The position numbers and the translations under genes are program-made. This document shows positions 173 through 61,705 of a DNA stretch of 64,000 nucleotides, in pieces. How positions within the stretch are numbered: position 1 is the stretch's first letter; the number at the start of each line of letters is the position of its first letter. This DNA comes from Mobula hypostoma (Eukaryota): positions 100,566,001 to 100,630,000 of the forward strand of contig NC_086107.1 in the NCBI RefSeq assembly GCF_963921235.1. Reading direction: 5' to 3'. The notes under the pieces were generated by a model. It had not been told where the DNA came from, did not search any database, and was given only the letters and a program-made list of their open reading frames with translations.

Positions 173-710
173 TCAAAGTTGCTGGTGAACGCAGCAGGCC
201 AGGCAGCATCTCTAGGAAGAGGTACAGTCAACGTTTCAGGCCGAGACCCTTCGTCCGGACTAACTGAAGGAAGAGTTAGTAAGAGATTTGAAAGTGGGAG
301 GGTGAGGGGGAGATCCAAAATGATAGGAGAAGACGGGGGGGGGGGGATGGAGCCAAGAGCTGGACAGGTGATTGACAAAAGGGATATGAGAGGATCACGG
401 GTCAGGAGGCCCAGGGAGAAAGAAAAGGGGGGGGGAACCCAGAGGATGGGCAAGGGGTATAGTCAGAGGGACACAGGGAGAAAAAGGAGAATGAGAGAAA
501 GAATGTGTGTATATAAATAACGGATGGGGTACGACGGGGAGGTGGGGCATTAGCGGAAGTTAGAGAAGTCAATGTTCATGCCATCAGGTCTCGGCCTGAA
601 ACGTTGACTGTACTTCCTCCTAGAGATGCTGCCTGGCCTGCTGCGTTCACCAGCAACTTTGATGTGTGTTGCTTGAATTTCCAGCATCTGCAGCATTCCT
701 TGTGTTTGCG
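173..710. mobile_element. Penelope-like element end with inverted pseudo-LTR segment (173-587 minus, 588-710 plus)
   Basis: 173-587 is the reverse complement of the 3' part of the GIY-YIG element at 40761-41696; flanked by AATATAAT(C/T)TGATTCA duplication (157-172 / 711-726). Confidence 0.8.
226..261 (-). ncRNA. Minimal type I hammerhead ribozyme motif, degenerate (core CGGACGA)
   Basis: minus strand AGTC CGGACGA A GGGTCTCGGCCT GAAAC GTT GACT. Confidence 0.55.
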
Positions 711-762
711 AATATAATTTGATTCACTGGGATCTCCACTTTAAAAACTGAATCTGTTTCAG

Positions 763-898
763 AACATGAGTGACTACGTCAGGGGCTATTCCGAAGCCGT
801 TAATCTCTTTGGATCTGTTCTCAACAAGTTCCTGAAGAGGAATCAGACCCCAACACGGGACGACTTCCGGCGAAATTTTCGTAATACTTCTTTCCCAG
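763..898 (+). CDS. GUCY2C: GUCY2C exon (~8), extracellular domain
   Basis: tttcag|AAC..CCAG|gtaatt; 136 bp; [46 protein letters not shown]. Confidence 0.88.
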
Positions 899-3800
899 GT
901 AATTACAGATTGTCCCTACGCTGAAAGGAAAGGTAGTGGATGGAGACAGGATAATGGATGAAAAGAAGACAGGTAGAGAGGAAGAAGGGAACACAGACAC
1001 GTGTGGGAATGAAAAGAAGGGAGACCAAGGATCTGACTTAATACAGCACAGAAGGCCATTTGGCTCAATGTGAACTTCCAGCAGAACAACCCCATCAACC
1101 CCATTCCTCCCTGTCCTGTAGCTCTGCAACTTATTCTCTCTTACATGTTCATCAAACTCTCCTTTCATTAATTCTGTCGTTTACCGACATTACTACGGCC
1201 CATTACAGCCCTGGCGTTTAGTAGACCAATGAAGGTCCTCCATCTCTGTCCGTGGCCATTATTGTGCCCCAGGTGTGGTTCAGGGTCCTCATTTCTGCCT
1301 CTACGGTACGGCGCCAAGTTGTCTTTGGTCTCCCATGTTTCCTCCACCCTTCAGGGGTCCAATGGATCGCTGCCTTGATGTTGGAGTTGGCCTCCCTTCT
1401 CATCACGTGTCCAATTCATCTCCTGTGTTTCCTCATGATGATTGTGGGCATGTCCTCTTGGTGACACTGAAGGAACAGGGTGTTTGGAGATCTTTCTTGG
1501 CCAGAAAATATGGAGGTTCCTGGTGTGAAATAACAACAGCTCGGCAAGGTCACTTTCTGTCAAGCACTGGCATTCTGTCCCCTACAGAAGTGTGGACAGA
1601 ACACTGCTCTGGCACTCTACTAGAGTGAGATAGGACATCTGGTTGAGTGATGGCACTAAAACAACTTCTTGACTTCAGGAAGGAGAAGGAGGGCTAATAT
1701 ACACTAGTCTACATTGGGGAATCGGCGGTGGAGTCAGCAGCTTTAAATTAATGGGTGTTAACATATCAGATGGCCGGTCCTGGGCCCAGCACATGAATAC
1801 AATAGTCAGGAAAGCATGCCAGCTTCTTTATTTTCTTAGGAGGTTAAGGATGATCGGTTTATCAGAGAATTCGCCAACAAGCTTCTACAAATGTACTGTT
1901 GAAAATATCCTGACTGGTTGCATCATGGTCTGGTACGGCAACTCAAATACAGGACCATAAGAAGCTGGGTTCCTTAAAGTTGTTATAGCCCATGGGGGGG
2001 GGAGGGATGATTGGTGAATATAAGCTCCCACCACCTATTAAATACTCCCTATGGTGGGTGTCTCAAATAGCCTCTGCCGACCAAATCCAGCACCTAGCCC
2101 TCACGTGTGGAGTAGCTACTGAGCACTAAAGCCTGGTGGAGCTGTTTATGTTTACAGGAGAAGGGGCAATAGCAGATTACTGGCACCTTAAAATCAGTCA
2201 CTTTGGGCAGATGGGGCTCATCAGCCGTGGTTGGCAGCTCATCTAGGAGAAGGAAAACTCTGATCTCAAACCCCCACTGCCTTGTGGCTATACCCACTCG
2301 TGGGGAAGGCTTCGGGAGTAAACCCCGAGGGAAAAATCTGGAGCTGGAGTCCCTGAGGCAACCCTACGTTGAGTTTAACATTAGCGGGCAAATCCTGTGA
2401 TGCCACTGTGCCAGACTTTATTGGTCTCTGCCTTTCCTTTTGGATTCATTAGCTGTGTGGAGAAGGGTAACCTGCTGCATGGGCAACACCTTGCTCTCGG
2501 TATTGTACTGTCCTGGCTTGCATATCATGTAGGCAGCTAGGATGCAAAATCCACGGTCAACCCTGACCAACAGAGGGCCTCATAAGAAGCTGCGGAGGGT
2601 ATTGGGTTTTCCCAATACATTACAGACACATCCTTCTTGACCATCGGTAGTATTTACTGGAGTCGCTACCTCATCTATAATCCCCACAATCCAGGCCATG
2701 CTGTTCTTTTACAGCTAGCATCAGGCAGGAGGTACAGCAGTCAGAAATTCCACACAACCAGGTTCAAGAACAGCTACTTCCCTTCAGCCATTTAATCCTT
2801 GAACCAACTGGCAAAGCCCTGATCTCTGCAGTTTAGTGAAGCTATGAACACCTTGACCACTTGGTACTAAAATGGACATTTTTATGTTCTAATTGCGTTT
2901 TCTTGAAAAAAAGTGTATAATTTATGTTTTTCTTGTGATGCTGCTACAACTAAGTTCTTCATTGCACTTGTGCCCATGACTATAAACTCGACTTTGGAGG
3001 CAAGGAAATAGAGAGGATGGGTAAAAATGTAAGGAGCAAAAAAGTTGACATGAAAATGGAAGGAAGGAAGAGAGAGCAGGGAATGGACGTGAAAGGGAAA
3101 TGGAGGCTTTTGGGGAAAGGAGGTCAACGGAATGAAGGGAAATCGAGAGTGTGGAAACACAGGGAGAAGTAGTGAAAGTGGAAGGTAAGGAATGGTTTTT
3201 TGGGAATATGGCGTTGGTGAAAAGGATACTGGCACCCTACGAAGAGAAGGAGCATGAATATAGAAATATAAAGAAAGATGAACAATCTTGAAAGAAACAT
3301 AAGTGATAACTGGAATATGATTGTACTTAGTAAACATATTAAATTAGCCATTCACTTGATTGCAGGGCTGAATGGAGAAGTTTACCTGGATGAACATGGA
3401 GACCGAGAGTTTAGCCTGACTGTTCTATACACTTCAATCAAGACAACCAAAGTAGGTTCTAAACTTCAAGTGAATTGGGATGTTCCGTATTGAAGCTGGT
3501 CTCTGCCGCATATGTACACAGTTTTACCACAGAAACAGATAAAAGCATTCAAAGGTCCTTTAAGTAAAATGTTAGTTTTCTGTGTACATACCAGTACAAA
3601 CTGGCCCCACCGCACACACATACGCAAACTGATCCCTCTGCCACAATAGTGTCTGACCCTTCCACTCAGTCAGACGTGCACACTGACACCTACTCCCCAA
3701 AGCACTGCCTCACTCCCCTCCGCGTACGTTTAACCCATTTCCACCCACCACCTACAGATGTCTGTCATTCCCCAAACACTTTGGTGCCCAGCATTGCTCA

Positions 3801-60240: not shown

Positions 60241-60289
60241 CAGAACAGAGACCCAGGGGTGCAGATACAGGTTCCTTGAGGGAGGAATC

Positions 60290-60985
60290 AGTTCGGTATT
60301 GAGGTGAGTGAGGTTATCCCTGCTGGGTCAGGAGCCTGATGGTTGAAAGCTAATATCTGCTCCTGGTCCTGGTGTTGTGGGACCTAAGGTTCCTGTACCT
60401 CATTCCGACTTCAGCGGTGAAAGGAGGGCATGGTCTGAATGGCGGAGGTCCTGGATGATGGATGCTGTCTTCCCGTGGCCGCGCCCCCTATAGGCGCGCT
60501 CAACGGTACAGGAGGGCTCTTTCGCTGACGGACTGGGCTGAATCCACCACTTTTTGTCGGCTTTTTCATTCTCAGGCATTGGTGTCTCCATACCAGGCCA
60601 TGATGCGACCAGCCAGGATGCTCTCCAAAGTGCATCAGCAGCAGTTGGTCAAAAGTTATTAGATGACATGGTGAATCTGTGCAAACTTCTAAGAAAGTAG
60701 AGGCATTGCCGTGTCATCTTTGTAATGGCACTTATATGCTGGTCCCAGGACAAATCCTGCAAAATGAAAACGCCAAGGAATTTAAAGTTACTGACCCTCT
60801 CCACCCCTGATCCCCTAATGATGACTGGTTCTGTATTCAGCTGCACAATCATATGTATAAAGTGAGCAGAGCAGGGGGCTAAGCACAGGTGATTACCTGT
60901 GCTGATGGTGAGAGTGGAGGGGATGTCACTAATCTGTGCTAACCAGGGTCTACCAGTGAGGAAATTGAGGATCTAGTTGCAGAGG
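60290..60985 (-). mobile_element. Rex1/Babar-type LINE fragment
   Basis: [43 protein letters not shown]. Confidence 0.75.
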
Positions 60986-61499
60986 GAGCTACCAAAACCT
61001 GGGTCCAGAGACTGCAGATGCCGGAATCTGGAGCAACACACTGGAAAAACTCACTGGCAGTTTCTGTGGAGGGAAATGACCAGTTTATATTTCAGGTTGC
61101 AAGAGATCCTTCTGCACATCAGGACTCTATTTTTGTCTTTTGGGCTTTAGTCATCTTCTTTCATTGTTATGTACTTGTTCCTTGTTCATAGACGGAGGGT
61201 CTATCACTTCACACATTTGCACCAGTAACTTACTGAAGACACTACCCTAAATCCCTTCGTGAGGAAAAATGTACCAGTCAGGCCACAATCAAACCTTTCG
61301 CTATAATTATTTGGTCTTTGTCTTAATTGTCTCTTTGTCCTTTAGCATTAATTTTACTTCATCCTCTGCAGAAGTCGTCTACAATGCTAACACATGTTAA
61401 TTTTATTTCTATCCTCCCAATTTCTGCGTAACTTCCTAAGGTGGTTAGAAAAACTTATTGCTAACATTCCCACTGCTTACTAGAAGATCCCCAAGCTTT

Positions 61500-61705
61500 T
61501 GAATCACGACAAAATCAGCAAGTGCTGGAAATCCAAGCAACACACACCAAATGCTGAAGGAACTCAACAAGTCAGGCAGCATCTATGGAAAAGCGTAAAC
61601 ACTCGACGAAGGGTCTTGGGCCTGAAACAACTACTGTTTAACTCTTTTCCATAGAACCTGCCTGGCCTGCTGAGTTTCTCCAGCATTTTGTGTGTGTTGC
61701 TTGGC
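61500..61705. mobile_element. Penelope-derived short repeat with inverted halves and a degenerate hammerhead motif
   Basis: 61525-61600 and 61635-61705 are inverted copies of the PLE tail; GACGAAGGGTCTTGGGCCTGAAAC lies between them. Confidence 0.65.

Follow-up and report, generated by a model that had tools for sequence, protein, structure and literature searches.

The hammerhead ribozyme motifs dispersed over the 64,000-nt stretch of Mobula hypostoma DNA analysed here (contig NC_086107.1; hereafter the window), which also carries exons of GUCY2C, are attributed to a Penelope-like element (PLE). With a probability of roughly 0.88, they represent the pseudo-long terminal repeat (pseudo-LTR) motif of a high-copy, endonuclease-bearing PLE of rays, probably a Neptune element with at least two subfamilies, and the copies in the window are its dead 3′ ends. 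In the longer copies the motif is located about 300 nt after the endonuclease stop codon, with a fixed 3′ end a further 100 nt or so downstream. The copies and further features are collected in Table 1; statements on published systems refer to excerpts of the papers cited.

A first-pass annotation of the window, made from its letters, had placed hammerheads at ten positions, and the motif was found at every one of them, on the strand given. A hidden Markov model (HMM) seeded with six window copies, which match by construction, returned 17 fragments of one repeat group (E 4e-48 to 0.025). Seven of these lie beyond the ten annotated places and are members of the same group, and the reversed window gave no match at E ≤ 10. 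The CUGANGA and GAAA core with an NUH triplet is present in the majority of the window copies and in the majority letters of the four contig runs described below. The consensus includes an unpaired base between positions 9 and 10.1, the G10.1–C11.1 pair and a loop-less palindromic 15.2–16.2 helix. The consensus sequence proposed in the annotation is matched by the majority of the 13 aligned copies, and its classification as a minimal type I hammerhead with a loop-less palindromic helix III is upheld, the bulge after A9 fitting the PLE hammerheads of PMC4209133.

Searches with a descriptor (core, bulge, 3 bp of stem II, loop-less helix III and 4 bp of stem I) gave no defect-free site, two sites with at most one defect (257, minus strand; 33540, plus strand) and four with at most two, compared with means of 0, 0 and 0.35 in 20 dinucleotide shuffles. 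The four sites are copies 226, 14263, 33536 and 41602, i.e. those ranked best in the annotation, and no others in the window come within two defects. The hammerhead motif is real, yet no window copy is intact (0 of 13 aligned). All core bases are retained only in 33536 and 41602, both of which have broken helices: in the former, stem I contains a mismatch, helix III has wobble pairs and the cut position reads GUU, and the latter has lost two of four stem II pairs, 10.1–11.1 among them. In copy 226, U4 is altered and GUU again occupies the cut position; in copy 14263, A14 is altered. Folding of the four best copies and two downstream segments revealed none that beats its shuffles (z −0.83 to 0.75). 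Among the approaches suggested in the first-pass annotation, the descriptor recovered the four sites, whereas an Rfam scan of the window listed no hammerhead among its eight matches at E ≤ 10, and stem covariation across the 13 window copies was not significant (59 of 500 shuffles reach the score).

The state of the parent sequence was addressed with contigs of four public runs (of 24 listed), aligned to 33330–33720 (391 nt). The runs contributed 97,166, 8,922, 68,844 and 39,575 contigs; their summed depth is not equivalent to copy number and is not used as such, and a dip in depth at 33471–33511 reflects a skipped repeat. In all four runs, the majority letter repairs all three departures of copy 33536 from the motif, the motif letter accounting for 70–78% of depth at C15.2, 73–86% at C17 and 82–98% at the stem I base. 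Other hammerhead variants among the rows listed are CpG-type transitions at N7 (7–18%), G12 (8–17%) and 11.1 (15–54%), the last of which leaves the pair as G–U. Run X9 likewise has intact majority letters; its RNA label is a guess, and the run is not counted for expression or cleavage. Among the window copies, differing cells amount to 30 of 89 in CpG columns and 36 of 285 in other columns. Together, the contig majority letters and the CpG-skewed differences are what neutral decay of copies from an intact parent would produce.

The same architecture is found in distant relatives. In metagenome contigs carrying distant PLE endonucleases, seven of nine loci have a hammerhead of this design with different but pairing stems, as compared by descriptor and not on an alignment. 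These loci provided eight descriptor matches within two defects, three of them defect-free (shuffles, 0.35); several loci are near-identical, so that about three to four independent families are represented. At L003:934(−), L004:2312(−) and L005:2312(−) an inverted hammerhead was observed upstream of the endonuclease, a head-to-head layout as in the ray. An exact 28-nt stretch of the window had no match in metagenome or viral contigs, and a search of viral sequences with the endonuclease profile gave 38 candidate stretches, none of which was confirmed.

The link of the motif to a PLE, already asserted in the first-pass annotation, is borne out by the C-terminus of an endonuclease upstream of three copies (226, 33536 and 41602), in each case with the hammerhead about 300 nt behind the stop. 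A 940-nt piece has copy 41602 as its 3′ end, and its reading frame closes at 41303 with a GIY-YIG domain; the last 27 codons of the same frame recur on copy 33536 and the last 13 on copy 226. The window endonuclease is 73–86% identical to ray PLE proteins and 62% identical to a whale shark reverse transcriptase (RT)-endonuclease protein, P0008, which has RT and GIY-YIG matches, the latter above the Pfam cut-off. RT is likewise present in the close homologs P0002 and P0005. A C-terminal GIY-YIG with the CCHH motif is recognised, the window copy lacking the G of YIG and one conserved H. A CxxC lies within the GIY-YIG core, and a CX4CxxC linker precedes the endonuclease. A CX2-5CxxC linker is described for Neptune and Nematis, and as absent from Penelope and Poseidon (Craig et al. 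2021, PMC8557442). On the basis of this one linker motif, the element probably belongs to the Neptune clade. At least two subfamilies are distinguishable among the window copies.

Several observations concern the coding capacity of such copies. In the main subfamily, a frame at 33491–33670 (+) stays open through hammerhead and tail for 60 codons and could be the N-terminus of an open reading frame (ORF); no start codon was identified for it. The first 33 residues of P0136, a Mobula birostris gene model for bifunctional coenzyme A synthase, come from a PLE end (85% identity), and P0004, P0005 and P0011 are PLE frames filed under host gene names. Such PLE-derived stretches in host-named proteins may be either annotation artefacts or exonisation.

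The ends of the copies carry further information on how they arose. Relative to the predicted cut, the 17 3′ ends form two main groups, ten at +100 to +103 and a second group of four at +59 to +70, with the other three falling between them (the 3′ end of copy 41602 was set apart from the local alignment, which overshoots). The second group stops 33–44 nt short of the first, a difference that matches the tail known from Penelope elements. In the contigs, the repeat breaks off sharply at 33670 and gives way to varied AT-rich sequence in 384, 372 and 304 records of runs X1, X5 and X10; in run X9, 60 records end at 33671. The 5′ ends spread from about −870 to +75 around the cut site. Twelve of the 17 fragments extend more than 15 nt upstream of the cut and were therefore copied from uncut or re-joined RNA; among the top loose ends listed for the two closest DNA runs, no 5′ end falls at the cut site. 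An inverted 5′ copy, a 30–40-bp tail at one end and a short duplication are the signature of PLEs (PMC3846280; PMC8557442), and 5′ truncation, an inverted 5′ copy, a one-sided tail and target duplication were all encountered among the window copies. In two cases the insertion is a composite of two arms arranged head to head, of which a single arm has the tail: the right one in the first composite and the left one in the second. The 16-bp duplication around the first composite scores 14, where the best of 299 random boundary pairs reaches 10; the 12-bp duplication around the second scores 10, equalled in one of 299 pairs. None of the inspected junctions showed insertion into a microsatellite. 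A partial tandem that would form a direct pseudo-LTR is absent from the window, and the contigs contain scattered go-back joints.

The first-pass annotation had proposed that the short copies may form a separate, retrozyme-like non-autonomous family. On the non-LTR retrozyme reading, hammerheads would cut tandem arrays of non-coding monomers, and the PLE enzyme would re-insert the monomers once they had been circularised. PLE terminal repeats are the source of non-LTR retrozymes, which are present, with a mean consensus of 363 bp, in the one cartilaginous fish sampled by Li et al., who also accept minimal motifs in their retrozyme search (bioRxiv 2026.07.22.740005); moreover, junctions leading from the 3′ part back into the hammerhead region occur in a few contigs. 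However, these go-back joints are scattered, all those listed differ, and their depth is at most 191 as against millions on the repeat. In the window none of the 21 tandem-repeat rows overlaps a hammerhead, and no two copies stand head to tail on the same strand within a few hundred bases. The copies begin and end about 100 nt from the cut site and not at the cut, three carry coding remnants, and their motif is of the minimal PLE type rather than the canonical type with looped helix III found in retrozymes (PMC7229834). As the short copies share 3′ end and tail with the endonuclease-bearing ones, their 5′ ends are scattered and no tandem array exists, the proposal of a separate family finds no support. 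We regard a retrozyme origin as very improbable: the window copies are not retrozymes, while tandem derivatives may exist elsewhere in the genome.

A different question is whether the copies of about 135 nt are a class of their own, i.e. run-off complementary DNAs (cDNAs) or a PLE derivative similar to a short interspersed nuclear element (SINE), with a fixed 5′ end at the first base of the hammerhead. Their RNA would start there by a transcription start or a splice acceptor and be primed internally at +103. Copies 14263, 46467 and 61126 indeed have the first base of stem I (−31 or −32) as their 5′ end, and 37–51% pyrimidine upstream, compared with 78–79% in the long copies. In the contigs, 11 go-back joints are listed for the PLE part, of which four lead to 33535–33540, three of them with at most three letters between, and loose ends before 33536 are found in 253 and 265 contigs. 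The AG of stem I after a pyrimidine tract resembles a 3′ splice site, and the intron of Drosophila virilis Penelope ends at helix I (PMC4209133). Still, the consensus of the loose ends before 33536 is pyrimidine-rich and matches the untranslated region (UTR) of the second subfamily at 53580, so that the peak at 33536 is largely a subfamily change. The upstream flanks of five short copies have nothing in common (scores 11–15), nor with the element beyond background, the three short copies span more than one subfamily and lack a target duplication, and the sample is small. It thus appears unlikely that these copies are a distinct class, and the corresponding prediction, that inserts of about 135 nt, spanning exactly from the first hammerhead base to the internal priming site, are a large class in ray genomes, is equally doubtful. 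If true, such a class would map the transcription start or splice acceptor of the element onto helix I and would constitute an in-genome record, over very many events, of uncut ribozyme RNA serving as template. In the course of this analysis, a common spliced first exon ahead of the short copies was rejected because their flanks are unrelated, and a perfect match to the branch-point motif upstream of 226 and 41602 was dropped as evidence because the contig majority letter differs there. Host proteins joined by splicing to the stem I AG were sought as well; of 35 candidates one matched, a Mobula gene model beginning inside the repeat, which has no bearing on such splicing.

Within the assignment to 5′-truncated ends of an endonuclease-bearing PLE, a mechanism can be outlined by analogy with PAc, the Poseidon element of the anole Anolis carolinensis. 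The element protein would nick AT-rich DNA, and reverse transcription would be primed inside the element's own RNA in two zones, about 103 or about 60–70 nt past the cut, yielding long and tail-less ends. Synthesis would pass through the uncut ribozyme and mostly halt early, resulting in 5′ truncation. An inverted second arm would occasionally be added before repair closes the insertion between target duplications, and the inserted copies would then degrade in the way of methylated repeats in general, most rapidly at CpG. This mechanism agrees with the ray copies, in which the two end zones are both downstream of the cut and 12 of 17 fragments cross it. In PAc, the template is mainly RNA that has not been cut, and cleavage by the ribozyme depends on the presence of the protein (PMC11167929). 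A minimal monomer showed no cleavage and dimers low cleavage (Cervera and De la Pena, PMC4209133). The parent ray ribozyme, which should be unable to close helix III alone, would probably cut slowly, via a dimer through the ACGU palindrome or with the help of protein. A dimer model through ACGU is nested and predicted to be favourable (−9.5 kcal/mol, computed). Cleavage of dimers was reportedly also described by Luense et al. in 2017. The computed dimer energies agree with a need for help and prove nothing on activity. Isolated and damaged as they are, and kilobases from one another, the copies in GUCY2C introns are unlikely to cut.

A number of points weigh against the assignment as a whole or against parts of it. 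The best predicted dimer fold (−28.3 kcal/mol) is far more stable than the active dimer, and the best predicted fold of the monomer is not a hammerhead. Random truncation accounts less well for the start of three short copies at −31 or −32 and of a further five within the hammerhead, and the internal-priming model is borrowed from a Poseidon element of a lizard. The window endonuclease copy stays below the Pfam cut-off (E 0.055), and the window holds no full-length element or RT, the latter being found only in homologous proteins. The Neptune label is weakened because the linker motif also occurs in Nematis. Finally, of the 14 single insertions or arms, 12 have no target duplication that exceeds what random boundaries give.

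Concerning the host gene, 19 exon-like matches on the plus strand correspond to a Mobula hypostoma guanylyl cyclase C-like protein. The exon at 37323–37508 has guanylyl cyclase C as its best PDB match (E 4e-28) and is 100% and 98% identical to guanylyl cyclase C-like proteins of Mobula hypostoma and Hypanus sabinus, respectively. The GUCY2C label in the first-pass annotation is thereby corroborated. Of the 17 fragments, 12 lie in GUCY2C introns and five, at 61–63 kb, downstream of the last coding exon. One might suppose that the host retained some intronic copies that act on GUCY2C pre-mRNA, as six intronic fragments are in sense orientation and two of these have complete core bases. However, those two have broken helices, and the remaining four are missing core bases or the 5′ half; fragments in the two orientations are equally frequent (six each), decay is concentrated at CpG, and none of the four best copies folds better than its own shuffles. 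A function in GUCY2C expression is given next to no credence here.

Table 1. Copies of the Penelope-like element and associated features in the window (signed distances are relative to the predicted cut).
Feature	Position	Strand	Remarks
5′-truncated PLE copy	171..589	−	last 13 endonuclease codons, 3′ UTR, hammerhead 226–261, tail-less end +59
Inverted arm, same insertion	587..709	+	starts inside stem II, tail (+103); 76/78 nt identical to left arm
Target-site duplication, 16 bp, AT-rich, 1 mismatch	157..172 and 711–726	+	boundary score 14
Short copy, starts at first stem I base, tail	14263..14399	+	A14 altered; upstream 49% pyrimidine
Short copy starting in stem II, tail	15055..15181	−	HMM and end map
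Tail-only fragment	21614..21657	−	HMM E 0.0024
Weak internal 3′-region fragment	22891..22919	−	HMM E 0.025
Old diverged copy, decayed hammerhead, tail	28113..28246	−	HMM
5′-truncated PLE copy	33127..33670	+	last 27 endonuclease codons, pyrimidine-rich 3′ UTR, hammerhead 33536–33571, tail; predicted cut after 33567; interrupts tRNA-type SINE-like repeat
Longest copy	40760..41700	+	CX4CxxC linker, GIY-YIG (stop after 41303), 3′ UTR, hammerhead 41602–41637 with stem II broken, tail-less end +67; nested in LTR-type element
Short decayed copy starting at stem I, tail-less	46364..46467	−	HMM and end map
Weak old copy, related subfamily	49749..49861	+	HMM fragment 49740–49825, E 0.0038
Second-subfamily copy	53356..53701	+	pyrimidine-rich UTR of at least 240 nt, hammerhead without stem II, tail
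Old copy starting at stem I	61009..61126	−	upstream 37% pyrimidine, no pyrimidine tract
Left arm with tail, second head-to-head composite	61503..61608	−	HMM and end map
Right arm, tail-less, second composite	61605..61703	+	12-bp duplication, 1 mismatch: 61495–61506, 61704–61715
Fragment downstream of cut site, tail	62444..62534	−	HMM and end map
Fragment downstream of cut site, tail	62992..63061	−	HMM and end map
GUCY2C coding exons	760..53934	+	residues 303–1054 of matched protein

Other repeats and genes share the window with the PLE copies. The LTR-type element in which the longest copy is nested extends over 37618–42464, with direct repeats at about 37618–38140 and 41929–42464 and interrupted minus-strand frames. 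One of its frames resembles DUF1759 gag proteins by features (0.94), with no Pfam match; presumably it is of the BEL/Pao type. A Tc1-like DNA transposon occupies 11542–13153 in a GUCY2C intron, with inverted arms that are 95–97% complementary and split transposase frames (HTH_Tnp_Tc3_2 and DDE_3). Two identical tRNA-Arg(CCT) genes (61914–61986 and 62750–62822; 836 nt apart, 67.4 bits each) are flanked by PLE fragments. A second dispersed, SINE-like repeat has a tRNA-like head (24.7 bits at 16095–16161) and members at 10701–10991, 15874–16170, 20024–20207, 32945–33129, 35919–36041, 42676–42950, 47463–47762, 51895–52018 and 54649–54820, one of which is interrupted by the PLE copy at 33127. At 22124–22600, in an intron, lies a simple repeat of 470 nt, rich in pyrimidines and with a period of 7–10. 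Several remnants with RT and endonuclease resemble long interspersed nuclear elements (5486–6295 (+) and others); the one tested gave no Pfam match, and we take them to be of the CR1/L2 type.

Taken alone, the finding is ordinary: minimal hammerheads at PLE ends are known across fish, amphibians and reptiles, and a ray family is added. A literature search of partial coverage retrieved no paper on ray PLE ribozymes, and one cartilaginous fish is already covered by a 2026 preprint. In practical terms, the value lies in the scale, illustrated by the 97,166 contigs obtained from one run on 391 nt. The 5′ and 3′ ends of this family could be used to ask, at large n, whether PLE ribozymes cleave before insertion and where reverse transcription starts.

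In comparison with the PLE hammerheads of fish, coelacanth and Xenopus (Cervera and De la Pena 2014, PMC4209133), the ray motif shares the core, the unpaired base after A9, G10.1–C11.1, the loop-less palindromic 15.2–16.2 and a 4-bp helix I, as well as the occurrence of mostly single, dispersed copies in truncated PLEs. Minimal hammerheads are named there for the fish elements Xena, Poseidon and Neptune; rays are unnamed in the excerpts of that paper. Helix II has 4 bp in the ray and 7–8 bp in Schistosoma, and unlike in that published set, the ray 10.1–11.1 pair is often G–U (15–54% of depth). Neptune PLEs (Craig et al. 2021, PMC8557442) resemble the ray element in their C-terminal GIY-YIG with internal CxxC, the CX2-5CxxC linker, 5′ truncation, the inverted 5′ copy, a 30–40-bp tail at one end and a hammerhead near the 3′ end. 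The window differs from these in having only truncated, damaged copies and no microsatellite insertion at the inspected junctions. With PAc (Frangieh et al. 2024, PMC11167929) the ray copies have in common two 3′ end zones after the hammerhead, targets rich in AT and insertions extending across the uncut ribozyme. Reverse transcription in PAc starts 111–118 nt into the ORF, 85–92 nt past the cut, compared with ray ends at about +103 and at +59 to +70. The PAc start codon lies inside the hammerhead core, whereas in the main ray subfamily C at position 7 leaves no AUG there. Poseidon elements are furthermore without the linker zinc finger, in contrast to the CX4CxxC linker of the ray element. 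As to non-LTR retrozymes, the type I hammerhead, descent from PLE terminal repeats and high copy number are common to both (PMC7229834; bioRxiv 2026.07.22.740005); retrozymes, however, are tandem non-coding monomers of 150–450 bp (PMC7229834), whereas the ray copies are dispersed or head-to-head, and several bear coding sequence.

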